Part shown: one piece after another, positions 11,160 to 60,998 of the stretch | Layout: each line of letters opens with the position of its first letter | Numbering within the stretch: the stretch's first letter is position 1 | Origin: Nitrospirota bacterium | GTDB taxonomy: Bacteria; Nitrospirota; UBA9217 | NCBI GenBank assembly: GCA_963840455.1 | Contig: CAWIYV010000001.1 | Location: forward strand, 192,001-256,000 | Direction of reading: 5' to 3' | DNA length: 64,000 nt | The notes under the pieces: generated by a model | What the model saw: the letters and a program-made list of their open reading frames with translations, nothing else | The model's database searches: none | Told to the model about the DNA's origin: nothing | Made by a program: the position numbers and the translations under genes

Positions 11160-11271
11160 TTGAAGCTCCCTGCAGCTGGCTGCAGAGAATCTTCGATCCT
11201 CAAGGTAGAATGGTTATCCTCATCGCTCGCGGACCCAGCGGCAAGCTGCGGGGAATGCGCTCGCTCCTGGA
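11160..11271 (-). mobile_element. Double-hairpin repeat element, copy 1 (PATE-like, IS200/IS605-related)
   Basis: Reads TCCAGGAGCGAGCGCATT...GAGCTTCAA on - strand; preceded by ATGAA. Confidence 0.75.
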
Positions 11272-11376
11272 TTCATCCGAATGTATCCTGTTATCGCATC
11301 CTGTCGAAAGGATCTCCGGGTTGTTCGTCTTGTCGGTTGGTGCGTCAGTTATCAGGGAAGATGACCGGGGTAGGTT

Positions 11377-12801
11377 CTATTTTTGGGGAGCATGAACGAG
11401 GTATTCATGCATGGCCTGAGCGGCCCTTCTTCCCGCGCCCATGGCAGAGATGACTGTGGCCGAGCCGGTCACGATATCGCCGCCGGCAAAGACGCCCGGT
11501 TTGCTGGTCTTTCCGGTCCTTTCGTCGGCGATGATGTAGCCCCACTTGTGGAGAGCGAGGTCCTTCGTGCTCTGCGGGACCAGGGGGTTGGCATTGGTGC
11601 CGATGGCCATGATGATGGTGTCGATTTGGATGCGGAACTCCGAGCCCTTGACGGGCCGGGATTTTCTGCGGCCGCTCGCATCGGGCTCGCCAAGCTCCAT
11701 GCGCACGCACTCCACTGCGTTCACCGAACCATCCTTGCCGAGGATGCGCACAGGCTCTGCAAGGACCTCAAAGCGCACGCCTTCTTCTTTTGCGTGATGG
11801 ACCTCTTCGCGACGGGCAGGCATGTCCTCCTCCGTACGCCGGTAGATGATGATGGCCTCCCCTGCTCCGAGGCGCAGGGCCGTCCTCACAGAGTCCATTG
11901 CCACGTTGCCGCCGCCGACTACCGCGACCCGCTCCCCTTTCCGGATGGGCGTGTCGAACTCGGGGGAATAGGCCCGCATGATGTTCATCCGCGTCAGGAA
12001 CTCATTGGCTGAATAGACCCCGTTCAGCTCCTCGCCCTCGATGTCCATGAACTTGGGCGTGCCGGCGCCGGTGGCGACGAAACAGACGTCGTACTGTTCG
12101 AGGATCTCATCGATGCTGATGAGCTTGCCGACGACCACGTTCAGCGCGATCTCGACGCCCATCCGTTTCAGCAGGTCGATCTCCCGAGCCACGATCTTCT
12201 TGGGCAGACGGAACTCCGGGATGCCGTAGAGCAGGACGCCGCCCGGCTCATGGAACGCTTCGAGGACCGTGACCGCATGGCCAAGCTTCGCCAGCTCATA
12301 GGCGCAGGCCAGGCCTGCGGGTCCGCTGCCGACGATGGCGACCTTCTTTCCCGTCGGCGGTGCCACCGGCGGGGGATCCACGAGACCATGCTGCATGACC
12401 CAGTCGGCCGCGAACCGCTCCAGCCTGCCGATGCCCACGGGGTCGAACTTCTTGCCCACGACGCAGCGCTGCTCACACTGTTTCTCCTGCGGGCAAACCC
12501 TGCCGCAGACCGCCGGGAGCAGGTTCGACTCCTTGATCGCGTCAAGGGCCGCCTTGAACTTCCCTTCCTTCACCAACTTGATGAACCGCGGGATGGGGAC
12601 CTGGACCGGGCACCCCTGCACGCAGGCGGGCTTGGGGCAGTTGAGGCAGCGCGCCGCCTCCTGCTGAGCCAAGTCGGCCGTATAGCCGAGAGAGACCTCG
12701 CCATAGTTCGATCTGCGTTGCTGAGGGTCTTGTTCGGGGATGGGTGTCTTGCGGGGGACGATCTTGGAAGCTGGTTTCCGTCCGGCGGCTGTTTCCGTCA
12801 T
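11377..12801 (-). CDS. nfnB: NfnB/SudA (GltD-like) NADPH-dependent oxidoreductase subunit
   Basis: RCLNC..P.C..GCP and CGRVCP..QCE..C Fe-S motifs; GSGPAG and GGGNVA Rossmann motifs; paired with nfnA. Confidence 0.85.
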   Translation of the reverse strand: MTETAAGRKPASKIVPRKTPIPEQDPQQRRSNYGEVSLGYTADLAQQEAARCLNCPKPACVQGCPVQVPIPRFIKLVKEGKFKAALDAIKESNLLPAVCGRVCPQEKQCEQRCVVGKKFDPVGIGRLERFAADWVMQHGLVDPPPVAPPTGKKVAIVGSGPAGLACAYELAKLGHAVTVLEAFHEPGGVLLYGIPEFRLPKKIVAREIDLLKRMGVEIALNVVVGKLISIDEILEQYDVCFVATGAGTPKFMDIEGEELNGVYSANEFLTRMNIMRAYSPEFDTPIRKGERVAVVGGGNVAMDSVRTALRLGAGEAIIIYRRTEEDMPARREEVHHAKEEGVRFEVLAEPVRILGKDGSVNAVECVRMELGEPDASGRRKSRPVKGSEFRIQIDTIIMAIGTNANPLVPQSTKDLALHKWGYIIADERTGKTSKPGVFAGGDIVTGSATVISAMGAGRRAAQAMHEYLVHAPQK

Positions 12802-12819
12802 GGTCTCGGCTGTTCCTTG

Positions 12820-12931
12820 TTGAAGATCCCTGCAGCAAGCTACAGGGAATCTTCGATCCTCAGTGTGGTATGCTGATCCTCATCGCCCGCTGACCCTGCA
12901 GCAAGCGGCGGGGAATGCGCTCGTTCCTGGA
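12820..12931 (-). mobile_element. Double-hairpin repeat element, copy 2
   Basis: Colinear with copy 1; lies between nfnA and nfnB; preceded by ATGAA containing the nfnA stop. Confidence 0.75.
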
Positions 12932-12932
12932 T

Positions 12933-13799
12933 TCATCGTTCGCAGACCGGCGCGGCGCTTCCGAGCATCTGCTCATGGCGCTTCTTCCAGGCCTCGAAGG
13001 ACTCCCGTTCTTCAGCAATGTAGGACTTCTGCCGGTTCATGAGCGCTACCCAGTCCACCTGGTGGCCGTCGAACTCGGGTCCGTCGACGCAGGCGAACAT
13101 CGTTTTTCCGCCAACCGTCACCCGGCACCCGCCGCACATGCCCGTGCCGTCCACCATGATGGGGTTCAGGCTGACCACGGTCCGGACGCCGAAGGGCCGC
13201 GTGGCCTCAGCGACGAACCGCATCATGATGGCCGGTCCTACGGAAACGACGAGCCCTGCCGGCCTGCAGGTCAATTCCCTGACGAGCACGTCCGTGACCA
13301 GGCCTTTCGTGCCCTTGCTGCCGTCATCGGTGGTGACGATCACCTCGTCGGCGACCGTCCGCATCTCGTCCTCGTAAACGAGCAGGTCCGCGCTCCGCGC
13401 TCCCATGATGACCGCGACCTCGTTGCCTGCGGTCTTGTAGGCCCGCGCAATGGGATAAAGCGGCGCCACACCGAACCCGCCTCCCACGATGACGACCCGC
13501 CCGACCTTCTCGATGTGCGTCGGCTGGCCGAGGGGCCCGCAGAGGTCCAGGATGTCGTCGCCCTGGTTCAGCAGCACCATCTCGTTTGTGGTCTTCCCCA
13601 CTGCCATGACGATAAGGCTGATCGTGCCCCCGGCAGGATCGATGTCCGCAAGCGACAGCGGGATACGCTCACCGCGGTCGTGCAGGCGGACGATGACGAA
13701 CTGTCCGGGTCTCGCCTTCTGCGAGATCAGCGGGGCCGCGATCTTGAAATAGAAGACATCGGGCTGCCGGATCAGCCGTTTCTCGAGGATCTTTGCCAT
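12933..13799 (-). CDS. nfnA: NfnA/SudB (PyrK-like) FAD/[2Fe-2S] subunit
   Basis: PGQFVI, ERIPLS, DGTGMCGGCR, FACVDGPEFDG motifs. Confidence 0.85.
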   Translation of the reverse strand: MAKILEKRLIRQPDVFYFKIAAPLISQKARPGQFVIVRLHDRGERIPLSLADIDPAGGTISLIVMAVGKTTNEMVLLNQGDDILDLCGPLGQPTHIEKVGRVVIVGGGFGVAPLYPIARAYKTAGNEVAVIMGARSADLLVYEDEMRTVADEVIVTTDDGSKGTKGLVTDVLVRELTCRPAGLVVSVGPAIMMRFVAEATRPFGVRTVVSLNPIMVDGTGMCGGCRVTVGGKTMFACVDGPEFDGHQVDWVALMNRQKSYIAEERESFEAWKKRHEQMLGSAAPVCER

Positions 13800-14010
13800 G
13801 GCGCGAAATAGTACCACAGTATGAAAATTTTTTATAGGGAAATGTGCAAAACAAATAGAGAGTACCGGGAGGCGAACAAGGACATCATCACGAGAGCGAA
13901 CAGGTGACTCGGGAAGCAGAGCAATGACAACCGCACGGTTCAAGGGCTGTATTTAGCGGCGACCGTCGATTACCGTAACACAACATACTCATCCGCGCAG
14001 ATCACTTGTT

Positions 14011-15333
14011 TTACAGCAGGGTCGCGGCCAGTTCGGCGAGATCCGAGCGTTCGCCTTTCACCAGGGTGATGTGGCCGGCAATGGGCTCTTCCTTGAAGCG
14101 ATCGACCACATAGGTGAGCCCGTTGCTGGACGAGTCGATATAAGGGTTGTCGATCTGGTAGGGGTCGCCGGTCAGAACGACCTTGGTCCCCTCGCCTGCA
14201 CGCGTGATGATGGTCTTGATCTCGTGGGGTGTCAGGTTCTGCGCCTCGTCAACGATGAGATACTGGTTCGGCATGCTCCGGCCGCGGATATAGGTGAGCG
14301 GCTCGACCTCGATCATGCCCAGATCGAACAGGCTCTGGAGGTCCTTCTTGCCCTTCGCCCTGCCCGCCACCGCCGACGCCGAGGCGCCCATGAGGAAGTC
14401 GAGGTTGTCGCGGATGGGCTGCATCCAGGGCCTGAGCTTTTCCTCGATGTCGCCGGGCAGGAACCCGATGTCCTTGCCGAGAGGGAACACGGGGCGGGAG
14501 ACAACGAGGCGCTGGAACGCCCGGTTCTCGATGGTCTTCTCCAGGCCGGCGGCGAGCGCAAGGAGCGTCTTCCCGGTGCCGGCCCGTCCGACGAGGGTCA
14601 CGAGCCGGATATCGTCGTTCAGGAGCAGGTCGAGCGCGTACTGCTGCTGCTTGTTCCGCGCCGAGATGCCCCAGATGCCATGCTTGGTGCTCGCGATCGG
14701 CACGAGGGCATGCTTCTGCTGGCTGTAGCGCGCCAGCGCGGTCTGCGAGGGATTGGCGTTGTTCTTGATCAACACGAACTCGTTCGGCAGTGGCTTGGGC
14801 TCAACGGCAGGGAGCTCCCCCCGGGAATAGAACTCCTCGACCGCTCCGGGGTCGACCGCCATCTCCACCTCCCCTGAATAGAGCTCGTCAAGGGTGATCG
14901 TGTCAGACTCGTAGTCCTCGGCGCGCATCCCGAGCGCGTCGGCCTTGATGCGGAGGTTCGTGTCCTTGGTCACAAGGATGACCGGCAGGTCATCGTGCTT
15001 GAGGTTGAGCGCCGTGGCGAGGATACGGTTGTCAGCCTTGGTCGCGATGAGCTCGCTCGGCAGACGTTCCGGGGACTGGTGGTTCAGCTCCACACGCAGG
15101 CATCCCCCACCCTCGAGCTTCACGCCCTGGGAGAGCTTGCCTTTCTGCCGGTATTCATCAAGGATCCTCGACACCTGCCTCGCGTTCCGGCCGATCTCGT
15201 CGATGCCCTTCTTGAACTTGTCGAGCTCCTCGATCACCACGATCGGTACCACCACGTCGTTGTCCTCGAAGGAAAAGATCGCCCGCGGGTCGTGAAGCAG
15301 CACGTTGGTATCCAATACAAATACCTTTTTCAT
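14011..15333 (-). CDS. PIN-domain PhoH-family ATPase (PhoH2/YlaK-like)
   Basis: VLDTNVLL PIN motif; GRAGTGKT; RGRS; DEAQN. Confidence 0.9.
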   Translation of the reverse strand: MKKVFVLDTNVLLHDPRAIFSFEDNDVVVPIVVIEELDKFKKGIDEIGRNARQVSRILDEYRQKGKLSQGVKLEGGGCLRVELNHQSPERLPSELIATKADNRILATALNLKHDDLPVILVTKDTNLRIKADALGMRAEDYESDTITLDELYSGEVEMAVDPGAVEEFYSRGELPAVEPKPLPNEFVLIKNNANPSQTALARYSQQKHALVPIASTKHGIWGISARNKQQQYALDLLLNDDIRLVTLVGRAGTGKTLLALAAGLEKTIENRAFQRLVVSRPVFPLGKDIGFLPGDIEEKLRPWMQPIRDNLDFLMGASASAVAGRAKGKKDLQSLFDLGMIEVEPLTYIRGRSMPNQYLIVDEAQNLTPHEIKTIITRAGEGTKVVLTGDPYQIDNPYIDSSSNGLTYVVDRFKEEPIAGHITLVKGERSDLAELAATLL

Positions 15334-15400
15334 GGACCGTCCTTGATCAATGGATTCTTCGTTACGGGCGTGATGCCCGCATGATAACGCCACCGGCCGG

Positions 15401-16018
15401 TTATGCCGGTGCAGCAATGTCTAGGATGCCCTGACGGATGATGCGTGGAGGTTCAACGGTAACATCGACGACGGTCGACGGCCTGTCCCCCGTTGTGACC
15501 CCCCCGTCCAGGATCAGGTCGACGCGGTCACCCACTTCGCGCATGACCTCTTTCACAGTGCGGGGATCGCGGCCACCCGACCGGTTCGCGCTCGTTCCAG
15601 TCAGAGCTGTTCCCAGATGCCGGAGCAGTTCCCTCGTCAGCTCGTTGCCCGGCACCCGCAGACCGATCGTGCCGCCCCCACCCGTCAGTCCCGGAAGCAC
15701 ATGCGGAGTTGCAGGGAACACCAGCGTAAGCGGCCCCGGCCAGAAGCGGTCCATCAGCCGTTCGGCCGACGGGGTGACCGCCGAGGCCCATGCGGCGACC
15801 TCGCTCCGGTCGTGCAGGAGCAGGAGGATGGGCTGGCCGGCCTCCCTGCCCTTTATGGTGAAGAGCCTTCTCACTGCTTCGGGGTCCCGGGGGTCCGCAC
15901 CCAGTCCGTAGAACGTGTCCGTCGGATAGGCGATGACGCCCCCGGCCCGGACAACTTCCCTGCATCGCGCGAAGACCGCATCAAGAGGTCCATCCAGTTT
16001 GAGTATCGCTACCGCCAT
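15401..16018 (-). CDS. tsaC: L-threonylcarbamoyladenylate synthase (TsaC/Sua5)
   Basis: YPTDTFYGL, IKGR, WPGPLT, TSANRSG, STVVD. Confidence 0.9.
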   Translation of the reverse strand: MAVAILKLDGPLDAVFARCREVVRAGGVIAYPTDTFYGLGADPRDPEAVRRLFTIKGREAGQPILLLLHDRSEVAAWASAVTPSAERLMDRFWPGPLTLVFPATPHVLPGLTGGGGTIGLRVPGNELTRELLRHLGTALTGTSANRSGGRDPRTVKEVMREVGDRVDLILDGGVTTGDRPSTVVDVTVEPPRIIRQGILDIAAPA

Positions 16019-16027
16019 AGAGCCTTG

Positions 16028-16879
16028 TCAGCGGTTCGCCATCAGGACGATGTCGCCGTTCTTTCTCCGCAGGCCTTTCGCCACGACCGGGCACTTCACC
16101 ATGAAGAGGAAGAAAGTCCGCGCGTCGCGCTCCTGCACCAAGGTCTCGTAGTTCGCCTGGCCCTTGCTGATGATCAGGTCAGCCGTTCGGTATTCCTGCA
16201 GGAACGCTTCCGAGCACAGCTCGAGCAGCGTACCGATGCCATCATTGCCATTGTCGATGACCGCTGATGCTGATCCGTGAAGCCCCGCGGACCGTGCGTC
16301 CTCGAGCGTAGCGTCATTGATGACCGGCACGCCCTTGACAACGGCTGTAACCTCCTTGCCCCTGTCCCGCAGCGTCTCGATCAGGACGCGATCGAACACG
16401 ATCTCGCCGGCGTTGTCGCACAGATAGAGGACCCGGCGCGCTTTGTGAACAGCGGCGGAGAAGTCATCAAAGGCTGTGTCTGCAAGGGGCAGTTCGAAGG
16501 AGTCCCGGAGAGCGCGGTCCAGGTCGACATTGTCGTAGATGCCGAAATCGATCACATTCCCGGCGATCGCGGCCCTGACGCTGCCGGCAAGCCGGTCCGT
16601 GCTGTGGGCCATGCGTCGCACATCGGGAAGCTTCTCGAGAGCGATGCGGTTATATGTTTCCTTGACCTTCCGGTAGGGATCGACCCCGCTCTCCTCGCGT
16701 ATGAGCCGGTGCAGCAGTGTCGAAACGCGGGCCGGCGCCTGATCGAACGAGACGCTCTCGATGATGGACCCTGCCCTGCGGGTGATGACCCTGCCCCGGT
16801 CGCCGTTGACCCCGGCGTATGCCAGCGTCCGGGAGACCTGCCGGAAGAAGCACGGCAGACACTCGAGCTCCGTTCTCAC
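16028..16879 (-). CDS. DUF89/ARMT1-like damage-control phosphatase
   Basis: GTG overlapping purE stop; ECLPC, AGNVIDFG, DNAGEIVFD, KGQANYE, KC motifs. Confidence 0.85.
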   Translation of the reverse strand: MRTELECLPCFFRQVSRTLAYAGVNGDRGRVITRRAGSIIESVSFDQAPARVSTLLHRLIREESGVDPYRKVKETYNRIALEKLPDVRRMAHSTDRLAGSVRAAIAGNVIDFGIYDNVDLDRALRDSFELPLADTAFDDFSAAVHKARRVLYLCDNAGEIVFDRVLIETLRDRGKEVTAVVKGVPVINDATLEDARSAGLHGSASAVIDNGNDGIGTLLELCSEAFLQEYRTADLIISKGQANYETLVQERDARTFFLFMVKCPVVAKGLRRKNGDIVLMANR

Positions 16880-17499
16880 GTGGCCGATCCCTGCGATGGG
16901 GCTGAGCCCGGCTTTTTCTTCCAGCGCCGACGGCGGGGCTTCTTTTTCTTGATCTCCGCGCCTGCGGCAGGTTCCGCCTCGCCGGCCGCGGGTTCGGCAC
17001 AGACCACCGCCGTCAGTTTCTTCGCCTTTTCCTCGATGTCCCGCTCCATCTCCACCTTGTAGACCTTGAGCCGATTGGCCACCTTCACGTCCGCCGATGC
17101 GATGATCTGCGCCGCGAAGATCCCGGCGTTCTTGGCGCCCGCCTTGCCGAGCGACATGGTGGCCACCGGCACGCCGCCGGGCATCTGGACCGTCGAGAGA
17201 AGCGCGTCGATCCCCTTGAGCGCCGAAGAGTCGATCGGCACGCCGATGACCGGCAGGGTCGTCTGGGACGCGATCACGCCGGCAAGGTGGGCCGCCCAGC
17301 CCGCCCCTGCAATGATCACCTTGAGGCCGCGCCGTTCGGCGCTCTGGCTGTACTCCAGCACCTTCTTGGGCGTGCGGTGCGCCGAGGCGATTGTCATCTC
17401 GTACTCGATGCCGAACTCCCGGAGCATTGCCCCTGCCTCCTGCATGATCGACAGATCGGAGTCGCTCCCCATCAATATTCCCACTACGGGCTTTGGCAT
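16876..17499 (-). CDS. purE: N5-CAIR mutase PurE with basic C-terminal extension
   Basis: MGSDSD, SAHRTP, AAHLAG, VQMPGGVPVAT. Confidence 0.95.
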   Translation of the reverse strand: MPKPVVGILMGSDSDLSIMQEAGAMLREFGIEYEMTIASAHRTPKKVLEYSQSAERRGLKVIIAGAGWAAHLAGVIASQTTLPVIGVPIDSSALKGIDALLSTVQMPGGVPVATMSLGKAGAKNAGIFAAQIIASADVKVANRLKVYKVEMERDIEEKAKKLTAVVCAEPAAGEAEPAAGAEIKKKKPRRRRWKKKPGSAPSQGSAT

Positions 17500-17550
17500 A
17501 GGAACTCCCTTCTTGCGATTTCGTTATCGTACCGGCTCGAACCGACCCGG

Positions 17551-18321
17551 TCACAGGTCCTTGGGATCGTCGATAAATACCGTGCTCACGCCGAACGCTT
17601 TGTTCACCGGCCGCATCAGCGCCCGGACACCCACCGTCTCCGTGGCATAGTGGCCCGCGGCAATGACGTTCATCCTCTGGTCCCGTGCTGCGTTATACAC
17701 GGCCAGGTCGATCTCGCCGACGATAAAACAGTCGAGGCCCGCTTCCCGTGCCTCGTTCAGCATGCTGCCGCCGCCTCCCGAGATTACGCCGATTGATCGG
17801 ACATGGTCCTTGCCGAACCCGAGAACGCGGCACGTTGACCTCAGCTGTCCGCTCAGCTTTTTCGCCACTGCATCCAACGCTGCTGCCTTGCCGAGCGTCC
17901 CCGCATATCCGATCCTGATGCCGTGGTACCTCCCGAACCTCCGGGGTTCCCGGACGCCAAGCAGGCGGCACAGCTGGATATTGTTCCCGTACTCGGCATG
18001 CAGGTCAAGCGGCAAATGCGCTGCATAGAGCGCCATATTGCGCTTGGAGAGGTAGGCCGCCCGCCGCCGCTCCAGCTCCCGGTCCTTCTGCGGCCGCCAC
18101 TTGATCCCGTGGTGGACGATCAGGAGGTCGATGGCCAGGCGGTCCGCCTTTTCAAAAGTGGAGAGACAGGCATCGACGGCGAACCCTACGCGTTTGATCT
18201 CCGTGCCCGCCCGCGGCCGCACCTGCAATCCGTTCATTGATGCGTCGCGGATCGTCCTTGTCCGCAGCGTCTTGTTCAGAAAGCCCACAATATCCGCTAT
18301 TGCGGCTTTTTTCATCCTCAT
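17551..18321 (-). CDS. Nif3-like dinuclear metal centre protein
   Basis: NGLQV, VHHG, HLPLD.H, GHYATE. Confidence 0.9.
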   Translation of the reverse strand: MRMKKAAIADIVGFLNKTLRTRTIRDASMNGLQVRPRAGTEIKRVGFAVDACLSTFEKADRLAIDLLIVHHGIKWRPQKDRELERRRAAYLSKRNMALYAAHLPLDLHAEYGNNIQLCRLLGVREPRRFGRYHGIRIGYAGTLGKAAALDAVAKKLSGQLRSTCRVLGFGKDHVRSIGVISGGGGSMLNEAREAGLDCFIVGEIDLAVYNAARDQRMNVIAAGHYATETVGVRALMRPVNKAFGVSTVFIDDPKDL

Positions 18322-19595
18322 GTCCCTGTTTCGAGCGCCCGGGCGCCAATGTCTCTTCGGTAATGCGCGCCTTCGAAGGAAATCTCACGAACGCCGGCAT
18401 AGGCGGTGTCGATGGCAGCCGCCACACTGGGCCCGAAGCCGGTTACCCCCAGGACCCTTCCACCGTCGGTGACCACCTTCCCATCCTTGAACGCGGTCCC
18501 GGAATGAAAGACCATGACATTCCTGAGGCCCGCGGCCTTGTCCAGGCCCCGAATCTCCTTGCCCTTCTCATAGCCGCCCGGGTACCCGCCCGAGGCTATG
18601 ACCACGCAGACAGCGGAGTCGGCCTTCCACTTGACCGGTGTCAAGGCGAGCTTGCCGTCCAGGATGGATTCGATGATTTCGATAAGGTCGCTGTCGAGCC
18701 TGGCCATGACAGGCTGTGTCTCGGGGTCGCCGAACCGGGCGTTGAACTCGAGGACCCTTGCCTCGCCGTTGTGGATCATGAGGCCGGCATAGAGGATGCC
18801 CTTGAACAGCCGGCCCTCCTTCTCCATGGCCCGCACGGTCGGATTCATCACTTTCTCCATGACCTGCTTCTCGATCTGCTTCGTCACGACCGGCGCCGGC
18901 GAATACGCGCCCATGCCGCCGGTGTTCGGCCCCTTGTCTGCGTCGAACACCCGCTTGTGGTCCTGCGACGATGCCATGGGAATAACGGTCTTCCCGTCGG
19001 TGAAGGCCATGAACGATGCCTCCTCGCCCCTGAGACATTCCTCGACAACCACAACATCGCCTGCTTCGCCGAATACCTTTTTGGTCATGATGAGGTCGAG
19101 GGCATTGACCGCCTCCTCGACCGTCTCCGCGACCACCACGCCCTTGCCTGCGGCAAGACCCGCCGCCTTCACGACGATGGGAGCGCCCTTGCTCCTTATA
19201 TAGGCCTCGGCCTCGGCCCGGTCCGTAAAGGCCCCGTACTCGGCCGAGGGAATGTGGTATTTCTTCATCAGGTCCTTGGTGAAGGCCTTGTTCGCCTCGA
19301 TCTCTGCCGCGTTCTTTGCCGGCCCGAAGACACGGAGCCCCTCCTTCTGGAACTCATCCACGATGCCCATCGAGAGCGGCCCCTCGGGCCCGACAATGGT
19401 CAGGTCCACTGCCTTCGAGCTCGCGAACGCAACAAGACCGGCAATGTCCTCGGCCCTGATCGGAACACATTCGGCAAGCTGCGCCATGCCGGCGTTGCCT
19501 GGCGCCGCGTAGATCTTTGTTACCCGAGGGCTCTGGGAGACCTTCCAGACCAGGGCGTGCTCCCTGCCCCCGCCGCCAACGACAAGAACTTTCAT
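18318..19595 (-). CDS. purD: Phosphoribosylamine-glycine ligase
   Basis: GGGGREHA, GPNTGGMG, EFNARFGDPETQ. Confidence 0.97.
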   Translation of the reverse strand: MKVLVVGGGGREHALVWKVSQSPRVTKIYAAPGNAGMAQLAECVPIRAEDIAGLVAFASSKAVDLTIVGPEGPLSMGIVDEFQKEGLRVFGPAKNAAEIEANKAFTKDLMKKYHIPSAEYGAFTDRAEAEAYIRSKGAPIVVKAAGLAAGKGVVVAETVEEAVNALDLIMTKKVFGEAGDVVVVEECLRGEEASFMAFTDGKTVIPMASSQDHKRVFDADKGPNTGGMGAYSPAPVVTKQIEKQVMEKVMNPTVRAMEKEGRLFKGILYAGLMIHNGEARVLEFNARFGDPETQPVMARLDSDLIEIIESILDGKLALTPVKWKADSAVCVVIASGGYPGGYEKGKEIRGLDKAAGLRNVMVFHSGTAFKDGKVVTDGGRVLGVTGFGPSVAAAIDTAYAGVREISFEGAHYRRDIGARALETGT

Positions 19596-19643
19596 GTTCG
19601 CTCCTTCGCGTTCTGTTGCTGTCTCCGCGGGCCGCCCACTGGC

Positions 19644-20474: not shown

Positions 20475-20481
20475 TGCGGCG

Positions 20482-20511
20482 ATAATAACACAGCACGAAC
20501 GTAAGTGTCAA
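20482..20511 (-). promoter_or_regulatory. Sigma70 promoter; leaderless larE
   Basis: TTGACA-18-TATTAT; ATG 7 nt downstream. Confidence 0.55.
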
Positions 20512-20545
20512 TAAAGTCCTTGCGGGCAAGGCGCTTTCCGGCCCG

Positions 20546-21343: not shown

Positions 21344-21369
21344 GGATGTGCGTCGAGCCTCCGCGGCAA

Positions 21370-24662: not shown

Positions 24663-24694
24663 ACAGATTTTTCCAGCCTATTAACGAAACTCAT

Positions 24695-50514: not shown

Positions 50515-50760
50515 TCAGGCGTTGCCAGCCTTTGCCCGCCTGAGCATTTCCATCATTTTGTCTTTTGCCGCCAGCTTCAGCTTCTGCAGCCGTCTCCGCT
50601 CGATCTCTTCCTCAGGGCTGAGGTACACATGGATCTCGAAGTTCATCAGTTCCTTGTCGATCTTGCGGTGCTCCTGCTCCAGCCGCTGGAACTCCGCGTT
50701 CTCTGTCCTGAGCTTTGCCCTTAGTGCTTCCTCAGATACCTCCATCACATTCATAAGCAT
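50515..50760 (-). CDS. DUF465 (YdcH-like) protein
   Basis: EF..L..EH..D......L.K.KL..KD pattern. Confidence 0.8.
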   Translation of the reverse strand: MLMNVMEVSEEALRAKLRTENAEFQRLEQEHRKIDKELMNFEIHVYLSPEEEIERRRLQKLKLAAKDKMMEMLRRAKAGNA

Positions 50761-50923
50761 GCCCTCCTTTTATAAGTTCGGGACTTTTTGAATGACGAGA
50801 AGACCGGGATCAGACTATTTAATTTATAAAAAAATTTAACACAAATGTCGCGAAAAGGCAAGGCAAAATATCTTGAGAATGACCTGGCTTTTATATTGCA
50901 TTATCAACAACTTAAAAAATATT

Positions 50924-52116: not shown

Positions 52117-52180
52117 GAAACCACCTTATCCGAATTTTCGAGCGCTGTCAAAACCTCTTTTTCTGTCGGGGAGGACGACG

Positions 52181-53065: not shown

Positions 53066-53147
53066 TCGTTACATCGTGGAATATATAAAGCACGATCAGT
53101 GAAAGCGTTTCGCCTGTATTTCTTCTTTGACCCCTGTCCCCGTCCTC

Positions 53148-53873
53148 TTAATCCCACCACAATGAGAACCCGTTGGAACGCCTCATGGTGTCCGCAAGCT
53201 TTTCGATCGTCCCTTTGTTCTCCGCCAGCACTTCGGGAGCGAAGGACCCGACGCTCCGTGCGAAAGCGTTCATGTTCTTCGGCGGTACGATGAAACGGGC
53301 CTCAAGCCAGTCCGCCCCCGCGCCGGTGATGACGAAGGTCCCTGCTCTCTGCTGCCCCTTAAGCCACTTGATGATCGCCTTGGTGTCCAGATCGTGGCGG
53401 GGCGCTTCGGTCTTCTGGACCAGGAGGATGTCGTAGGAGTTCTTCCCGCGAATGACCGTGACCACGTCGGGGACGTTGCCGTAATTCTGCTGGCTTCTGA
53501 AGACCAGGAATCCCTGAGAGAGGAACGCCGGTGAAAGGCTGGAAATGACCTCGTCGGCCCTCAGGGTGTGTACGCTGAATCCGGACAGCCGGGCTGTGGC
53601 GATCATCACATCGCCCTTGAGGTTCGAGGAGCGTATCATGACATCCTCAAAGAACGGCTCTGCAGGCGCTCCTCCCGCAGCCTCGACCTGCGCGATGATA
53701 TCCGGAGGAAAGCCCAGTTCGGCCCTCTGCGCCGCCGTCATGATCTTGGGCTTCGGTTTCAGGAGGACCAGGGGTGCGGCATTCTTCTCCGGCGCATTCG
53801 TTGCTTCCTGCGGTGAACAGGAAAAGGCTGCGACAAGGATGAGGCCGACCAAGAAGAGATATCTATCTGCCAT
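53148..53873 (-). CDS. DUF4253-like lipoprotein
   Basis: Lipobox-like AFSC; C-terminal LWWD. Confidence 0.7.
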   Translation of the reverse strand: MADRYLFLVGLILVAAFSCSPQEATNAPEKNAAPLVLLKPKPKIMTAAQRAELGFPPDIIAQVEAAGGAPAEPFFEDVMIRSSNLKGDVMIATARLSGFSVHTLRADEVISSLSPAFLSQGFLVFRSQQNYGNVPDVVTVIRGKNSYDILLVQKTEAPRHDLDTKAIIKWLKGQQRAGTFVITGAGADWLEARFIVPPKNMNAFARSVGSFAPEVLAENKGTIEKLADTMRRSNGFSLWWD

Positions 53874-54159
53874 AACGGATCTCGAAATGACCAAACTCGC
53901 GAGTAAATGGTTCCCAGGCAATGTCCACGCTGTTCACCTCGGCCCCCGCGGGGCCCCGGTGGCACCATCCGACGATCGCCTCGACCTTTTTCTTCGGTCC
54001 TTCGAACAAGGCCTCCACAGAACCGTCGGGAAGGTTTCTCACCCACCCGGTGACGCCGAGGCGGTCGGCCTCGTCCTTGGTGCTTGCCCTGAACCATACC
54101 CCTTGAACAAGACCGTGAACGATCACCCGCGCGCGAAGTTGGTCCCTGTTGTTTTTCAT
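53863..54159 (-). CDS. acyP: Acylphosphatase
   Basis: VQGVWFR; GWVRNLPDGSVE. Confidence 0.92.
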   Translation of the reverse strand: MKNNRDQLRARVIVHGLVQGVWFRASTKDEADRLGVTGWVRNLPDGSVEALFEGPKKKVEAIVGWCHRGPAGAEVNSVDIAWEPFTREFGHFEIRYGR

Positions 54160-54188
54160 GACAGTAAAAAAGCAGCATTACCTGAGAA

Positions 54189-55658
54189 TTACGGTCTCCG
54201 TCCGCCACGGCCGCGCGTATTCGCCGGCTGCTGCCCCGACGGCTTTGGACGAGATCTTTTCTGGCCTCCGGGCCTCAGGCCCGGGGCGTCGACCGGCCCC
54301 CTCTTCCGTGAACCGTACACCTTGCCCCCGAACGCAGGGCGCGCAAAGCGCTTTTCTCCATATACGGGTCCTCTGCCTTCAGCCCTCGCACCCCGAGCGT
54401 CGGGCCGCGTGCGTCCCTGAGCTGGTGACTGCCGGATGGCCGTTCGCGCACGATCACCGGATGGCCGCGCCGGACCTCCTGTTGGTCCTCGCTGTTCGCT
54501 CATGCGTGGCCTCTCGTCTCCCCTGTGTCCGCGGAACGCTGGTTTCCGACTGCTATCCCTCTGAGGCCCGCGATCTGCTGGAGTTCCGCGAACCATCTTG
54601 TCCATTTGATTTCCCTGCCATCGTTCGCCCGGTCCCCGTGCCGGCCCCCCCTCGCCGATCCTAACGGCCCCAAGAGGCTTCGACATCGGCAGAGCTTCCC
54701 GTCGCACCCGTTCAACAGAGGAAGTGCGCCTGACCGACCCATCCTTCACGGAGGTGACATTGCGCACGAGCTGTCCCCGCGACCTTCGTTTTTCCTCCCC
54801 ACGGCCCCACATTCTCGAGTCATCGCGTCCGCTCACCGGTTTCTTCGCGTCACCGGTCTCGCGCCGAACGGCCCTGCTTCGCGCCTCCGCACTCTTCTTC
54901 GGTGCCATGATCCTCGGCACCGGCTGCTTGGCTTCATCCTGCGTGGCCATTTGCCGGAGCCCCTGCACCTCGTCCAGGGTCAGATGGCGATACATGCCGA
55001 CCGGAAGGTCCCCGAGGCTCAGGCTGCCGACCCTGGTCCTCTTGAGCTTGATCACTGAATGGCCGGTATGGTCGATCATGCGACGCACCTGGCGTTTTCT
55101 GCCTTCATGGATCGTGATCTCGACCCAGGAATTCGACTCCTCCTTGCGGAGCTTTCGTACCCGGGCGGGCGCCGTCTTGCCGTCCTTGAGAAAAACGCCT
55201 TGTTCGAGCATCTCGACGTGCCGGTCCTCCAGGAAGCCCTTGACCTTCACCAAGTAGGTCTTGGGCAGTTCATGCTTCGGATGGGTGACGAGGTGAGCAA
55301 GGTCCCCGTCGTTCGTCAGCAGGAGCAGTCCCTCCGTGTCATAGTCGAGCCTGCCCACGGGATAGACACGGACCCTGACGCCCTTCAGGAGATTTGCGAC
55401 GATCGGGCGGCCCTCGGGGTCCGACATGGTCGTAACGAAACCGGCTGGTTTATTCAGCATGATATAGGCCTTGGGCTGTTTCGGATTGATCAGTTTGCCG
55501 TCGACCTTGATGTGGTCCCGGTCAGGGTCGGCCTTGGCGCCAAGCTCCGATATGACCTTGCCGTTCACCCGCACACGCCCCTCGAGGATGATCTCCTCGG
55601 CGGCGCGGCGCGATGCGATACCAGCCGCTGACAGGATCTTCTGGATTCTCTCTTCCAT
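54189..55658 (-). CDS. rluB: 23S rRNA pseudouridine synthase with long Arg-rich tail
   Basis: S4 domain; GRLDYDTEGLLLLTNDG; EGRKRQVRRM. Confidence 0.85.
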   Translation of the reverse strand: MEERIQKILSAAGIASRRAAEEIILEGRVRVNGKVISELGAKADPDRDHIKVDGKLINPKQPKAYIMLNKPAGFVTTMSDPEGRPIVANLLKGVRVRVYPVGRLDYDTEGLLLLTNDGDLAHLVTHPKHELPKTYLVKVKGFLEDRHVEMLEQGVFLKDGKTAPARVRKLRKEESNSWVEITIHEGRKRQVRRMIDHTGHSVIKLKRTRVGSLSLGDLPVGMYRHLTLDEVQGLRQMATQDEAKQPVPRIMAPKKSAEARSRAVRRETGDAKKPVSGRDDSRMWGRGEEKRRSRGQLVRNVTSVKDGSVRRTSSVERVRREALPMSKPLGAVRIGEGGPARGPGERWQGNQMDKMVRGTPADRGPQRDSSRKPAFRGHRGDERPRMSEQRGPTGGPARPSGDRARTAIRQSPAQGRTRPDARGARAEGRGPVYGEKRFARPAFGGKVYGSRKRGPVDAPGLRPGGQKRSRPKPSGQQPANTRGRGGRRP

Positions 55659-55711
55659 GCATTCACCGCAGGGGCGCGGTGCCCGCTCCCCCGTTATCCT
55701 TCCTTGTTTGA

Positions 55712-55809
55712 CAAGCTCCCGGGAATCTTCGATCCAGGGTCCGTATCGCTATTATTCTCATCTCCCGCATTCTCCGCGGCAAACTGCGGGGAATGCGTTC
55801 GCTCCCGGC
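55712..55809 (-). mobile_element. Degenerate copy 3 of double-hairpin element (right hairpin collapsed)
   Basis: AAGCTCCC|GGGAATCTTCGATCC...CTGCGGGGAATGCGTTCGCTCC on + strand. Confidence 0.65.
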
Positions 55810-55810
55810 T

Positions 55811-55996
55811 TCATGATCTTCGCTGAGCAAGCCACTCTTTAAGCCGGGGGCATTTGTTCTTCGCGCGATTGTCCTGACAGTCGCCGCAGATGGTCATGTC
55901 GGGGCTGCAGGGCTGGAACCCGTTGTGCCGGGATGCCGGTCCTGCCTGCTTCAGTTTCCCCTCGCGCGCCTTTTGGATGCTGGTCACCTTCGTCAT
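55811..55996 (-). CDS. Small Cys-rich hypothetical protein
   Basis: 61 aa; C-x6-CxxC-x8-C. Confidence 0.5.
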   Translation of the reverse strand: MTKVTSIQKAREGKLKQAGPASRHNGFQPCSPDMTICGDCQDNRAKNKCPRLKEWLAQRRS

Positions 55997-56112
55997 GCTA
56001 TCGGCCCCGGAAACGAACCATGGTTATCACTGATGAAGAAAGGCGGCCACAGCGGGCCGCCCCTCGGTTTTTCCTGAATGATGAACCCTGACCTCCGGCT
56101 CCCGCAGTACCT

Positions 56113-57594
<1,482 letters not shown>

Positions 57595-57605
57595 TTAGCC
57601 CTGAA

Positions 57606-57829
57606 TCCAGGAGCGAGCGCATTCCCCGCAGCTTGCTACGGGGTTAGCGAGCGATTAGAATAACAATAGTTCCTTGAGGATCGAAGCTCCATGCCTCTTG
57701 CAGGAGGGAGCTTAAATCCAGGAGCGAGCGCATTCCCCGCAGCTTGCTGCGGGGGTCACCGAGCAATGAGAATAAAAATAGTTCCTTGAGGATCGAAGAT
57801 TCCCTGCGTCTTGCTGCAGGGAGCTTCAA
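57606..57829 (+). mobile_element. Head-to-tail tandem dimer of double-hairpin element (copies 4 and 5)
   Basis: 57606-57716 and 57717-57829; junction GAGCTTAAA|TCCAGG; preceded by CTGAA. Confidence 0.8.
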
Positions 57830-57966
57830 TGACCAGATGACGGCTCTTCCCGGCAGCAGGGATGATGCGGCAACACCGTGGCGACAGGAACTCCCCGTGC
57901 TGCTTCCTGGCTGAAATTGAGGGTGTACTGTACCACAAACGTCCGCAAATCTCAAGCGTTCCGTTA

Positions 57967-58731
57967 TCAGAACCCCGATGCGGCGTTGAGGAAAGGGTTC
58001 TCGCGCCGTTCGTCACCAATGGTGGATTGTGGGCCGTGGCCGGAGAGGATGACTGTTTCGTCCGGAAGGGTCATAAGGTGTTCTTTGATGGACGTGATAA
58101 GCATCATGAGGTCCCCGCCCAGGAGGTCGGTCCTGCCAATGGACCCGGCGAAGAGCGCATCCCCGGTGAACACCACGCCGTCCCCAGCCAGGCAGATGCC
58201 GCCCGCCGAATGCCCCGGGGTATAAAGGACCTTGAGCGAGATATCACCCGCCTTGATGATGTCGCCGTGCTTCACGAACCGGTCGGCCTTCGGCGATGAG
58301 GGTGCGGTCATGCCGAACATCCGTGCCTGGTTCGCTGTTCCTCCCAGCAAGACACTGTCGGCCTCGTGGATGAGCAGCTCGGCGCCCGTGGCGTCCTTGA
58401 TCTGTTTGTTGGCGCCCACGTGGTCGAAATGGGCATGGGTGTTCACGATATATCTCACCTTCAGGCCCTTCCCCCTGACGAGGTGCAGGATGTCCTGGGC
58501 ATCGTCGCCCGGATCGATGACGATGGCCTCGTTGGTCTTTTCATCGTACACGATATAGCAATTCACCTGCAGCGGACCGACGACCAGTCTCGATAGTTGC
58601 ATTGGATTGTTCTTCTTTCTCTCGGAATATCGGAATGCCCCGGCCAGGATCGCCGCAGCGGTTAGCATTACCATGACAATCAGAACGACCGGTCGCCATC
58701 GAAGCCATGTTTCAGCGGCGGCATTTCGCAT
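57967..58731 (-). CDS. MBL-fold metallohydrolase (glyoxalase II-like); alternative start 58602
   Basis: THAHFDH; TPGHS; FTGD; GHG. Confidence 0.88.
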   Translation of the reverse strand: MRNAAAETWLRWRPVVLIVMVMLTAAAILAGAFRYSERKKNNPMQLSRLVVGPLQVNCYIVYDEKTNEAIVIDPGDDAQDILHLVRGKGLKVRYIVNTHAHFDHVGANKQIKDATGAELLIHEADSVLLGGTANQARMFGMTAPSSPKADRFVKHGDIIKAGDISLKVLYTPGHSAGGICLAGDGVVFTGDALFAGSIGRTDLLGGDLMMLITSIKEHLMTLPDETVILSGHGPQSTIGDERRENPFLNAASGF

Positions 58732-59239
58732 TTGCTTCCAGGTCCAACAATATTTTCTTCATCCCCCGTCCTCCGGAAAACCCGCCCAGCGTACCTGCTG
58801 AGCTGATGACCCGGTGTCACGGGATCAGGATTGGGACCGGATTCGCACCCATTGCCTGGCCAACTGCCCGGGCCGCTTTCGGTCTTCCGATCCGCTTCGC
58901 GATCCAGGCATAGCTCCGTGTTTCTCCGTACGGGATTGACGCTGCTGCCTTCCATACCGCCCGTTGGAAGGGCGTATAATAACTCAGGTCGAGCGGCAGA
59001 TCAAATGATACACGTTTGCCCGAAAAGTACTGTTGCATGAGCTTTACCGTTCTCTTGATCTCACGGTCAGTTGATCGCGACGCTGCTGCCTTCGATACTG
59101 CGACTTTCACCTTTGCCAGTGCCAGTTCGTTCTTAACGGTCTTCTGAGAACCCCGGGGAAGAACGATCCTGCATATCCCCTTCTCATAAATGCCTGCTCC
59201 GGCCCAACCGAGCGGAGTGGAAAATATCGTCTTTTTCAT
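58712..59239 (-). CDS. ogt: Methylated-DNA-protein-cysteine methyltransferase, probable selenoprotein (TGA at 58817-58819)
   Basis: IPYGETRSY, AARAVG, NPVPILIP[TGA]HRVI...LGGFSGG..MK..LLDLE. Confidence 0.9.
58773..58814 (-). promoter_or_regulatory. Bacterial SECIS-like hairpin (ogt)
   Basis: Upper stem GCUCAGC/GCUGGGC, loop AGGUAC, lower stem CCGGG/UCCGG. Confidence 0.75.
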
Positions 59240-59262
59240 TTCACGCACCTCCCGCACTCTCA

Positions 59263-59310
59263 CCTTTGTCCCTTTGTCCCCTTGTCACCGTGTCTCCCCG
59301 TCACCGCGTC
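59263..59310. repeat. Six degenerate 8-bp tandem units
   Basis: CCTTTGTC CCTTTGTC CCCTTGTC ACCGTGTC TCCCCGTC ACCGCGTC. Confidence 0.6.
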
Positions 59311-60877
59311 TGCCTTTTCGCCTCGCCATCCCCCACAGGAACCTGAGCTCCTCGCTCCGCAGAAGCCACATGGCGACGAGATAGAAGAGCACGCTCACGG
59401 TCACGCCGAAGCCGAGCCACTTGACCTTGTAGAGCGTATTGCCCGGCGAATCCCACACCGGCTTCAGGCTGACCCACCAGCCGATGGCGCCCATGATGAT
59501 GGATGCTGGCACGATCTTGAGCAGGGATATAAAGATCCTCCTTCCGTCCATGCGCCCGATCTTCTTCCGGAGCCGCTTTGTGAGCAGGCCGAGGTTCAGC
59601 ATTGCCGCGAGCGACGTTGCGAGCGCCAGGCCTCCGTGCTGCAGCGGCGTCTGGATGAAGAAGACGCTGAGCACCATGTTCGTGGCCAGGGCGAGCAGGG
59701 CGATACGGACCGGCGTCCTCGTGTCCTGGAGCGAGTAGAACGCCTGGGACACGACCCGCACCCCGGCAAAGGCCCAGAGACCGAGGGCGTAGTACAGGAG
59801 CGCGGACGCCGTGCCGATGGTGGAGAGATGGTTGAACTCGCCGTGCTGCAGCAGGAGGTTCACGATGGGGACGCGGAGCATGATGAGGCCCGCCATGGCC
59901 GGGAACATGACGAAGAAGACCAGGCGTATGCCGAGCGACAAGGTCTCGCGGAACTGCTCCATCTCCTGCCTGGCCGCCTGGGCAGACAGCGTGGGCAGCA
60001 CGGCCGTCGCGATGGCGACGCCGAAGATCCCGAGCGGAAAGTGGATGAAACGCATGCCGTAGAACAGAAAGGTGATGCTGCCCGTGGCGAGGAACGATGC
60101 CAGAATGGTGCTGACGAAGATATTGAGCTGGGTTACTGAAGAGCTGAGGAACACCGGAAGGGCCAGCGCCCCGATCTTCCGGACGCCCGGATGGCTCGGC
60201 GAGAACCGGGGTGTGAGCATCATCCCCTGCCTGTGCAGACCGGGGAGCTGGATAAGGAACTGGAAGAGCCCGCCGAGCACCACGCCGACGGCTGCGCCCA
60301 TGATGGGCTCGGGCATGTGCGGCGAGAGCAGCACCACGGAACCGATGGTCATCACGTTCAGCATCACCGGCGACAGCGCCGGGAACAGGAAGGAGCGGAG
60401 GGAGTTCAACATGCCCATGGCCAGCGCGGCCAGGCCGATGAACAGGAGGTACGGGAACATCATCCGCGTGAGCGACGCCGCCATCAGGAACTTATCGCGC
60501 TGCGTCTCGAACTTCCAGCCCCAGGCAATGATCTTCACGATGTAGGGCGCAAAGATGATGCCGAGGCCCGTGACGATGACCAGGATGACCAGGAGCCGCG
60601 CGAAGACCGCGTTGGCGAGGCGCCGCGCATCCTCCTTTGATCCCTTCGTCAATGTCTCGGTGAAGACCGGGATGAAAGCCGCGGACATGGACCCCTCGGC
60701 CAGCAGTTCGCGGAGGAGGTTCGGGATCCGGTAGGCTACATAAAAGGCGTCGGCGGCCGCGGTAGTGCCGAAGGCCCAGGACATCACCATGTCGCGGACA
60801 TACCCCATGACCCGGGAGGCGAGCGTCGCAGCGCCTACCACGCCAGCCGCCTTTGCAACTTTTATGTTCTCAGACAT
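59285..60877 (-). CDS. murJ: Lipid II flippase MurJ
   Basis: SRVMGYVRD; RIPNLLRELLAEG; FIPVF; multiple TM helices. Confidence 0.95.
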   Translation of the reverse strand: MSENIKVAKAAGVVGAATLASRVMGYVRDMVMSWAFGTTAAADAFYVAYRIPNLLRELLAEGSMSAAFIPVFTETLTKGSKEDARRLANAVFARLLVILVIVTGLGIIFAPYIVKIIAWGWKFETQRDKFLMAASLTRMMFPYLLFIGLAALAMGMLNSLRSFLFPALSPVMLNVMTIGSVVLLSPHMPEPIMGAAVGVVLGGLFQFLIQLPGLHRQGMMLTPRFSPSHPGVRKIGALALPVFLSSSVTQLNIFVSTILASFLATGSITFLFYGMRFIHFPLGIFGVAIATAVLPTLSAQAARQEMEQFRETLSLGIRLVFFVMFPAMAGLIMLRVPIVNLLLQHGEFNHLSTIGTASALLYYALGLWAFAGVRVVSQAFYSLQDTRTPVRIALLALATNMVLSVFFIQTPLQHGGLALATSLAAMLNLGLLTKRLRKKIGRMDGRRIFISLLKIVPASIIMGAIGWWVSLKPVWDSPGNTLYKVKWLGFGVTVSVLFYLVAMWLLRSEELRFLWGMARRKGRRGDGETR

Positions 60878-60952
60878 AATCGATCACCGTTATCGTCGAA
60901 TGCCGGGGCCCGCTACCGGATTACCCGATGTTCATTCGCCACCTGCGTCCCC

Positions 60953-60998
60953 TTGAAGCTCCCTGCAGCAAGCTGCGGGAATTGCGCTCTCTCCTGGA
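60953..60998 (-). mobile_element. Internally deleted single-hairpin copy 6 of the element
   Basis: TTGAAGCTCCCTGCAGCAAGCTGCGGGAATTGCGCTCTCTCCTGGA on + strand: both termini around one hairpin. Confidence 0.7.

Follow-up and report, generated by a model that had tools for sequence, protein, structure and literature searches.

We found that a family of 112-nucleotide (nt) repeats in the genome of a Nitrospirota bacterium very probably consists of non-autonomous mobile elements of the IS200/IS605 family, of the kind known as palindrome-associated transposable elements (PATEs). The repeats were noticed in a 64,000 nt stretch of DNA (positions 192,001 to 256,000 of contig CAWIYV010000001.1, assembly GCA_963840455.1; "the window" below), which is part of contig C1 of a 4.03 Mb genome (G000) that comprises 14 contigs and is 100% complete by marker genes. 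An initial annotation of the window had described six intergenic copies of a double-hairpin element and had proposed that it is a mobile element that inserts beside TGAA. The copy number of the element, its TGAA flank, the empty sites that we found in a related genome, and its agreement with the guide code of the insertion sequence IS608 all support this PATE-type reading.

A BLASTN search of G000 with the copy that begins at position 57717 of the window returned 334 high-scoring segment pairs. A profile of 112 positions, which was built from 162 full-length matches and used with a cut-off of E ≤ 1e-3, gave 357 matches at 270 places, and 207 of these matches spanned all 112 positions. This abundance, which agrees with the high copy number expected from the window, is far above chance. 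The consensus of 187 aligned copies from G000, identical to the one first derived from the window, is TCCAGGAGCGAGCG-CATT-(CCCCGCAGC TT GCTGCGGGG)-46 nt-GATT-(CCCTGCAGC TT GCTGCAGGG)-AGCTTCAA. It contains no open reading frame (ORF) and is too short for a transposase, and it has no terminal inverted repeats, as neither of its ends (TCCAGGAGCG… and …GGGAGCTTCAA) is an inverted copy of the other. Hairpin 1 (positions 19–38) and hairpin 2 (positions 85–104) have the same orientation, and in both a perfect 9 bp stem carries a TT loop and an ATT foot on the same strand. The 187 copies have a median identity to the consensus of 87.5% and a mean pairwise identity of 81%. A group of roughly a dozen copies close to the consensus lie at unrelated sites and differ among themselves by 1–3 bases, and the only identical pairs in G000 have common flanks and are therefore segmental duplicates.

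We identified 274 complete left ends in G000, of which 41 abut another unit and 233 are non-tandem. TGAA precedes 156 of the 233 non-tandem left ends, compared with a genome background of 0.46%, so the preference for this tetranucleotide that had been suggested from a handful of flanks extends to the family. The next commonest flanks are CGAA (14), TAAA (11), and TGGA (8), and GGAA was also found. Taken by position, T is present at −4 in 193 of the 233 flanks, G at −3 in 201, A at −2 in 213, and A at −1 in 220, and the positions upstream of −4 are unbiased. At the other side of the element, 147 of the 209 non-tandem right ends read TTCAA, and the first base beyond the end (+1) is T or C at 192 of them.

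To compare filled and empty alleles, we used G003, one of five other genomes of the same genus (G001–G005), which is 92–94% identical to G000 over long matches. When 30 copies from G003 were mapped to G000, the flanks abutted at 11 sites, the site was filled at 7, and 3 were ambiguous; the remainder had no usable flanks. We checked 14 sites that are filled in G003 base by base. Eight of them were clean in G000, with the tetranucleotide present, nothing duplicated, and element boundaries at TCCAGG…TTCAA; the tetranucleotide of the filled allele was TGAA at six of these sites, GGAA at one, and CGAA at one. Two of the other six sites agree save for an adjacent element fragment or a 3–4 nt difference, and four were not resolvable. 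In the reverse comparison, two 20 kb stretches of G000 held eight full or composite copies, of which three are present in G003, two are cleanly absent, one is probably absent (judged by length only), and two are unclear. Filled and empty alleles thus differ by exactly the element, with the tetranucleotide joined directly to the 3′ flank and no target duplication at eight clean empty sites in one direction and two in the other, as had been predicted, and each of these two genomes of ~92% identity has copies that the other lacks.

The architecture of the element can be compared with that of IS608 from Helicobacter pylori. In IS608, the target tetranucleotide remains on the left flank and the element enters 3′ of it: cleavage takes place 3′ of TTAC, 19 nt 5′ of the foot of the left hairpin, and, at the right end, after TCAA, 10 nt 3′ of the foot of the right hairpin. 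These sites are read by 4 nt guides 5′ of each hairpin foot, and no DNA is gained or lost (PMC3201880). The left guide is AAAG and the right guide GAAT, with A+16 pairing with T−3 and A+17 with T−4, and integration is affected by the base that follows the cleavage site (PMC5934647). The accounts in these two papers confirm the guides, sites, and pairing that the initial annotation had given. The element resembles IS608 in the side on which its target tetranucleotide lies, in its TCAA right end, in the position of its guides, in the absence of DNA gain or loss, and in its asymmetric distances (18 nt from the left end to hairpin 1 and 8 nt from hairpin 2 to the right end), and in both elements the base after the cleavage site matters. 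It differs in its lack of tnpA and tnpB, in its stems, which are perfect 9 bp helices rather than the imperfect palindromes of IS608, and in its target, TGAA rather than TTAC. At the level of sequence, CATT/TGAA and GATT/TCAA obey the IS608 pairing rule, in which guide positions 1, 2, and 4 pair with site positions 2, 1, and 4, respectively; the rule predicts TGNA from CATT and TCNA from GATT.

CATT is present at 158 of the 274 left ends in G000, and sequences from other genomes show natural covariation between guide and site in accord with the rule. Two copies (L122 and L148) combine a variant right guide, GATA, with the end TCAT, and the target TGCA of a third (L137) is compatible with TGNA. 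Moreover, a tnpA-bearing IS200 from five genomes of the same bacterial family (L057–L061) has the left guide AATA with the flank TTAT, and its copies are split between AATG with TTAC and GATG with TCAC at the right end. This covariation is natural evidence that the DNA-guided cleavage code of IS608 holds in a distant IS200 clade.

The precision of these sites also bears on the type of enzyme involved. Insertion without duplication beside specific sequences is a property of Y2 rolling-circle transposases (IS91/ISCR and helitron-like) and of DEDD enzymes of the IS110/IS1111 type as well, and a mover of one of these types would fit the failure of our searches to find a Y1 partner. The targets of IS110-type elements, however, are longer than the 4 nt that are conserved here. 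Furthermore, the element has directly oriented hairpins with 4 nt guides that obey the IS608 code, natural covariation included, and its 18 and 8 nt distances match those of the tnpA-bearing IS200 of the same bacterial family. We consider a Y2 or DEDD mover extremely improbable. The Y2 transposase profile PF04986 had no matches in G000, but its control likewise had none in any genome, so that this negative is uninformative.

In the mechanism that we favor, a Y1 HUH transposase (TnpA) supplied in trans would bind both hairpins on the single-stranded top strand, in the lagging-strand template. The guides would select the cleavage positions, CATT directing cleavage after TGAA on the left flank (TGAA|) and GATT after TCAA at the right end (TCAA|). 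The top strand would then leave as a circle in which TCAA is joined to TCCAGG, and the circle would re-enter 3′ of another TGAA. In the circle, an internal 9-mer, GGATCGAAG, would pair across the junction and may hold the two ends together.

The orientation of the copies is consistent with this mechanism. With strands assigned from GC skew alone and the G-rich strand assumed to be the leading strand in the host (an assumption that belongs with the opposing points gathered below), 177 of the 251 places with a single orientation have their top strand on the G-rich strand (binomial p 6.6e-11); for crudely called genes, co-orientation with the G-rich strand is 61.5%. The fraction of places with the top strand on the G-rich strand is 78/108 between convergent or divergent genes, 68/92 where both flanking genes are leading, and 31/50 where both are lagging. 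The bias is kept between convergent or divergent genes, and orientation therefore follows replication and not transcription. The active strand of the IS200/IS605 family is reported to lie on the lagging-strand template (PMC5027513), which is the orientation seen here, and a bias toward this template is thus shared with IS608.

A second covarying feature, one that sets the element apart from IS608, links its two ends. The first three to four bases of the element are complementary to three to four bases that lie two bases upstream of GAAG-ATT, in the right guide region. The covarying pairs, which come from nine subfamilies, are TCC/GGA, TTC/GAA, CCG/CGG, CGG/CCG, CTG/CAG, AATG/CATT, ACG/CGT, (C)ATG/CAT, and (C)ACG/CGT. 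Because the left arms vary in length, the first bases share no alignment column, and the helix between the left terminus and the pre-guide segment was counted by script. With one representative of each class, 11 of 12 first-three-base classes were complementary to their own partner, compared with 22 of 132 cross-class pairings; approximately nine of the types are independent, as single-base variants of TCC, or a mis-parse of it, make up three of the 12 classes. The whole of GGATCGAAG, including GAAG/CTTC, is a near-complement of the joined ends CTTCAA|TCC, with one conserved mismatch. When a natural tandem junction was folded as DNA, GGAT/ATCC and GAAG/CTTC formed together with hairpin 2 (−8.7 kcal/mol, z −2.0). 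Because the GAAG/CTTC part varies on one side alone in a set of 26 sequences and is shortened in some genera, covariation supports just the outer part of the helix.

We tentatively suggest that GGATCGAAG might be a DNA splint that holds the cut ends or the circle junction for TnpA. On this possible, though doubtful, view, a family without linkage to any transposase would borrow any TnpA of the IS200 group that accepts its hairpin, and its specificity would lie wholly in the DNA of the element. A comparable helix is not seen in the IS608 portions of PMC3201880 and PMC5934647, and our wider literature search was narrow, so we make no claim that such a helix is unpublished. If it is functional, the junction-spanning helix would add a new cis-acting component to single-strand transposition.

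The element is widely distributed. Each of the five other genomes of the genus contains it, and further genera of the family have it in lower copy number, with the same architecture, the target TGAA, and the end TCAA. We surveyed a collection of species-representative genomes with an exact 37 nt pattern from the left arm. The pattern was found unchanged in at least 110 stretches, whose record titles include Nitrospirota and Desulfobacterota, and all 80 of the loci that were listed contain gene-less forms of ~100–155 nt. Of these 80 loci, 64 have titles of Desulfobacterota type (Desulfobacterales, Desulfobulbaceae, Deltaproteobacteria, Syntrophobacterales, Thermodesulfobacteriota, Candidatus Desulfatibia, and Candidatus Desulfaltia), 12 are titled Nitrospirae, Nitrospirota, Nitrospiraceae, or Nitrospiria, and one each is titled Chloroflexia, Acidobacteriota, Bacteroidales, and Pirellulales. 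Nearly all of the records are metagenome bins, and the four loci with single titles could therefore be binning errors. A 4.18 Mb contig titled Chloroflexia (L142) bears a copy of the TCCAGGAG type, which is otherwise found in records titled Nitrospirae; its title may be wrong, or the copy may have been transferred. Two loci, L129 and L050 (the latter from the genus of the window), have common flanks. No published mention of the element in Nitrospirota turned up in our literature search, which was too narrow for us to call the element unpublished.

Metagenomes also contain the element. In three DNA metagenomes from wetland, freshwater, and subsurface (runs X1, X3, and X4), the summed contig depth over positions 57593–57836 of the window reaches thousands, compared with ~10–300 on the flanks. 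This depth reflects the copies of many organisms. In these communities the abundance of the family is very high.

Several results weigh against the identification of the repeat as a mobile element of the IS200/IS605 family. Cleavage, the circular intermediate, and dependence on TnpA are all inferred from sequence. The differences between filled and empty alleles are unpolarised by an outgroup and represent either insertion or precise excision, although either would be expected of such elements. Six metagenome copies with the guide GATG keep the end TCAA, contrary to the code, and may be dead. Nor is there covariation between guide variants and targets within G000, where the variants look like the products of decay after insertion. 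Finally, we found no cognate Y1 transposase in searches that sampled loci rather than covering them exhaustively, so that a rare parent could have escaped. G000 has no intact Y1 gene, its only two matches to PF01797 each being interrupted by a stop. Among genomes of the family, 51 of 61 have Y1 matches, and in a comparison of the best Y1 loci of the 60 relatives, none of the 29 loci that were fetched bears the ends of the element. The 80 listed loci from other genomes gave no tblastn matches with 18 TnpA queries in up to 8 kb of DNA each, and none of 30 Y1 loci in five further element-holding genomes (two of which are single-record chromosomes) is flanked by element ends.

The initial annotation had placed the mover, a Y1 transposase, outside the window. 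We also found none inside it, but that statement was too weak, because the whole genome lacks an intact Y1 gene and no cognate enzyme was found in any of the places that we searched. No hits to the 37-mer were obtained in the viral contigs that were scanned. We also guessed at the form of a parent element, in which ATG would replace the ATT of GATT, and scanned metagenomes for it; the scan gave six stretches, all of which were gene-less GATG copies. As no intact Y1 gene remains in G000, the family is probably now a fossil in this genome. The puzzle is that copies vary between close relatives, yet no matching transposase was found.

The best candidate for mobilization in trans is a TnpA of the L057 type, because the most similar hairpin that we found belongs to its IS200; among the 29 fetched loci, L057 was the sole Y1 locus of the family with hairpins (weakly) similar to those of the element. 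This IS200, which encodes a TnpA of 141 amino acids (aa), shares with the element its 18 and 8 nt geometry, a hairpin top (GCAGC-T(C)T-GCTGC), the guide rule, and the host family. In contrast, its target is TTAT, its end is TTAC or TCAC, and its arms are otherwise unrelated, and it is not among the PF01797 matches listed for the genus of the window. We regard the L057-type enzyme as a putative mover.

The two interrupted PF01797 matches in G000 are of different types. One is an IS200-type tnpA pseudogene (C10:393728-394087; L001:1462-1890, minus strand) that has an in-frame TAG and adjoins the 3′ end of a tRNA gene. Its hairpins (CCCCCGGC-TCCT-GCCGGGGG) differ from those of the element, and it has an intact 142 aa counterpart in G004 (L076). 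The other (C14:236761-237003; L002), which has no element nearby, is a truncated copy of a long Y1-like gene. The products of such genes are proteins of ~300–340 aa with an N-terminal Y1-like domain, and in many relatives they are present in multiple copies (L081, L083, L084, and L085). In L081, L083, and L084 the genes are flanked by inverted repeats of the GGGGTCAG type (GGGGTCAGAC…GTCTGACCCC in L081), which are unrelated to the element, and together with these repeats they look like a separate mobile or domesticated system.

These long genes are central to a different account of the family. Repetitive extragenic palindromic (REP) sequences and the REPINs that they form are short, abundant, intergenic hairpin repeats that are thought to depend on a Y1 HUH enzyme acting in trans, the REP-associated tyrosine transposase (RAYT) (PMC3337134, PMC8266576), and the element could be a repeat of this type, spread by a domesticated Y1 enzyme (RAYT/TnpA-REP). 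The candidates for such an enzyme would be the Y1-like proteins of ~300 aa, which have a C-terminal helix-turn-helix region. Each of the other five genomes of the genus has long Y1-like genes, as do five further element-holding genomes. G000 retains its truncated gene, and REPs too have a conserved tetranucleotide beside the hairpin (PMC3733652, PMC8266576). However, REPINs consist of two inverted REPs and flank the single-copy RAYT gene to which they are tied (PMC3337134, PMC8266576), whereas the hairpins of the element are direct, its target and boundaries are precise, and we found no gene that it flanks in this way. The long Y1-like genes are flanked instead by inverted repeats of the GGGGTCAGAC type; there are two partial matches to the element nearby, neither of which is in a flanking position. 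Moreover, one genome (G018, 86% complete) has at least 17 matches to the element and no match to PF01797. The 37 nt core is unchanged in records of at least two phyla, and it therefore points to a horizontally moving parasite and not to a host-bound REP system. Taken together, these observations make it very unlikely that the repeat belongs to the REP/REPIN type.

We also considered whether the element is kept by selection on the host, which might use it as a small RNA, a scaffold for a TnpB guide RNA, a terminator, or a promoter cassette. Conservation within G000 is highest in the middle of the element (TTAGCGAGCGATTAGAAT … CCTTGAGGATCGAAG), and copies from other phyla contain a related form of this stretch. 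A sigma-70-like sequence, TTGCTA-17-TAGAAT, lies within the element (57633–57661 of the window), and some bacterial PATEs encode guide RNAs (PMC10055086). The sigma-70-like sequence is a match to the consensus only; it may have survived from a tnpA promoter and could drive outward transcription. The idea that the element acts as an RNA, which had been raised in the initial annotation, was not borne out: we found no TnpB and no usable evidence of expression. The TnpB profiles PF07282 and PF01385 each gave no matches in G000, with controls positive in 8 of 14 genomes. The sole run with an RNA record touches positions 57601–57663 at a depth of ~3 in contigs, which shows nothing about transcription, and at the tandem pair of copies described below there is no terminator-like site. 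A single contig in one run skips positions 57587–57909, but it extends just 31 nt on one side and was therefore set aside. A comparison with Rfam revealed no known non-mobile RNA, as no match in the window reached the gathering score; a permissive scan of positions 57500–57900 gave a single match at chance level (E 1.7).

The pattern of variation likewise argues against retention by the host. RNAalifold returned no structure for the 187 copies from G000, and we therefore counted the named pairs. Within G000, the hairpin pairs are kept approximately as the independent decay of two columns predicts, and no better. In the set of 26 sequences, 98.1% of cells are paired in hairpin 2, with four of eight pairs changed on both sides (13 cells), and likewise 98.1% in hairpin 1, which was fixed by the search pattern in most rows, so that its invariance there is uninformative. 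The orientation of the element tracks replication and not the neighboring genes, and it has no preference for a type of gene pair (convergent at 59 of 250 places, divergent at 49, and co-directional at 142). A role for the element in the host is, in our judgment, a highly improbable explanation of the family.

PATEs as a kind are already known, and the element is a new bacterial member of this kind, from the IS200 group. Like the PATEs of Haloquadratum walsbyi and other haloarchaea, it has no terminal inverted repeats, has similar palindromes near its termini, has a 5′ targeting sequence (4–5 nt in the haloarchaeal elements), causes no target duplication, and is too short to encode a transposase (PMC3119063). 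Haloquadratum PATEs also show strain-specific insertions even where the IS200-type genes are pseudogenes, and they include 52 bp terminal-only forms, which arise by repeat-mediated deletion between palindromes (PMC3119063). The haloarchaeal hosts are archaeal and those of our element are bacterial (Nitrospirota and Desulfobacterota by record title). Several of the Haloquadratum PATEs match known transposons (PMC3119063), whereas for our element no related parent of the IS605 type with the same ends was found. A further difference is that our element forms head-to-tail arrays of up to four full units, a comparison that was made by description and not by sequence. The family combines a precisely defined target and precise boundaries with hundreds of copies in a single 4 Mb genome, and it is a clear case of a bacterial PATE.

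All six copies that had been described in the window were found at their places, between long ORFs, and their 5′ flanks (ATGAA, ATGAA, ATGAA, CTGAA, TTAAA, and ACGAA, in order of position) read as reported. Two full-length copies on the minus strand, at 11160–11271 and 12820–12931, have the flank ATGAA, with their TGAA targets at 11272–11275 and 12932–12935 (minus strand), respectively, and both are present in G003. In G001 and G002 the site of the second seems to be empty, although divergence of the intergenic DNA prevents exact boundaries from being drawn. A decayed copy on the minus strand, with approximate boundaries at ~55708–55809, has a hairpin 2 that has collapsed to CCCGGG and a left end that has changed to GCCGGGAGCG; its profile match (55711–55808) covers profile positions 2–97, and TGAA (flank ATGAA) lies at 55810–55813 (minus strand). 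The sixth copy (60953–60998, minus strand) is a 46 nt single-hairpin form, in which the left arm is fused to the right tail through a shared hairpin, and its flank is CGAA at 60999–61002 (minus strand; 5′ flank ACGAA).

The remaining two copies form a head-to-tail dimer on the plus strand (57606–57829), which lies between the start of guaB (56113–57573, minus strand) and the stop of a gene for a hydrolase of the metallo-β-lactamase (MBL) fold (57967–58731, minus strand). The dimer is present in G000 and G003, a single-hairpin form lies close by in G005, and the site is empty in G001, G002, and G004. The upstream unit (57606–57716) has the target TGAA at 57602–57605 (flank CTGAA), a variant second hairpin, and TTAAA at its end; the latter is the 5′ flank of the downstream unit (57717–57829) and marks the tandem junction. 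The downstream unit has the canonical architecture. Its left guide, CATT (57731–57734), directly adjoins the hairpin 1 foot on the 5′ side, the foot being 18 nt from the left end, and hairpin 1 (CCCCGCAGC TT GCTGCGGGG) occupies 57735–57754. The segment GGATCGAAG, whose first three bases covary across subfamilies with the initial three of the element, is at 57790–57798, the right guide, GATT, is at 57798–57801 (directly adjoining the hairpin 2 foot on the 5′ side), and hairpin 2, which in this copy reads CCCTGCGTC TT GCTGCAGGG, is at 57802–57821. The right tail, AGCTTCAA (57822–57829), extends 8 nt from the foot of the hairpin, and its last four nucleotides, TCAA, are the putative cleavage site.

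Dimers and single-hairpin forms are common in G000. There is one full unit at 154 places, two at 18, three at 3, and four at 2, and 93 places have partial forms only. Single-hairpin forms number 26, with TGAA before 13 of them. Of the 41 tandem junctions, 29 have an upstream unit that ends in TTAAA and 11 have one that ends in TTCAA. These forms can be accommodated by the same mechanism if a unit end that has mutated to TAAA, a tolerated target, lets a new copy insert directly behind it; a TAAA-ended unit would no longer be cleavable at its own right end. The units within some arrays are closely alike, and unequal recombination is therefore also likely to contribute, so that targeting of TAAA ends and unequal recombination together would generate the head-to-tail arrays. 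Recombination between the two near-identical hairpins of one element would give the 46 nt forms, which have their parallel in the 52 bp terminal-only PATEs of Haloquadratum (PMC3119063). The element thus accounts for ~270 intergenic repeat places, for head-to-tail arrays, and for 46 nt hairpins in the annotation of G000. Repeats of this type are a probable cause of breaks in many metagenome assemblies of these groups.

Array size differs between genomes, as exemplified by a site that has two tandem units in G003 (C59:1489-1713) and one in G000 (C11:184875-184988). In a set of loci from G018 (L097, L101, and L111) and from metagenome contigs (L259–L264), some copies have an extra small hairpin, CCCTGTCCCGCCAGAGCGGGACTGCAGGG, in the loop of hairpin 2, and in some the hairpin 1 loop contains a longer insert. 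We also searched G000 for composites with cargo, as pairs of a left-end-only and a right-end-only match. This search gave three candidates, and the one that we inspected (C11:706779-707904) proved to be a single-hairpin form and a separate right-end fragment that flank a host gene for a 262 aa protein.

A second repeat family of ~190–235 nt, which ends in …CCCGTGAA, is present in G000 at C13:46209-46443 and at least 25 other places. In several of these places, the 112 nt element follows directly after the TGAA of the second repeat, with a second copy ~160 nt further on, and this composite is repeated at least five times.

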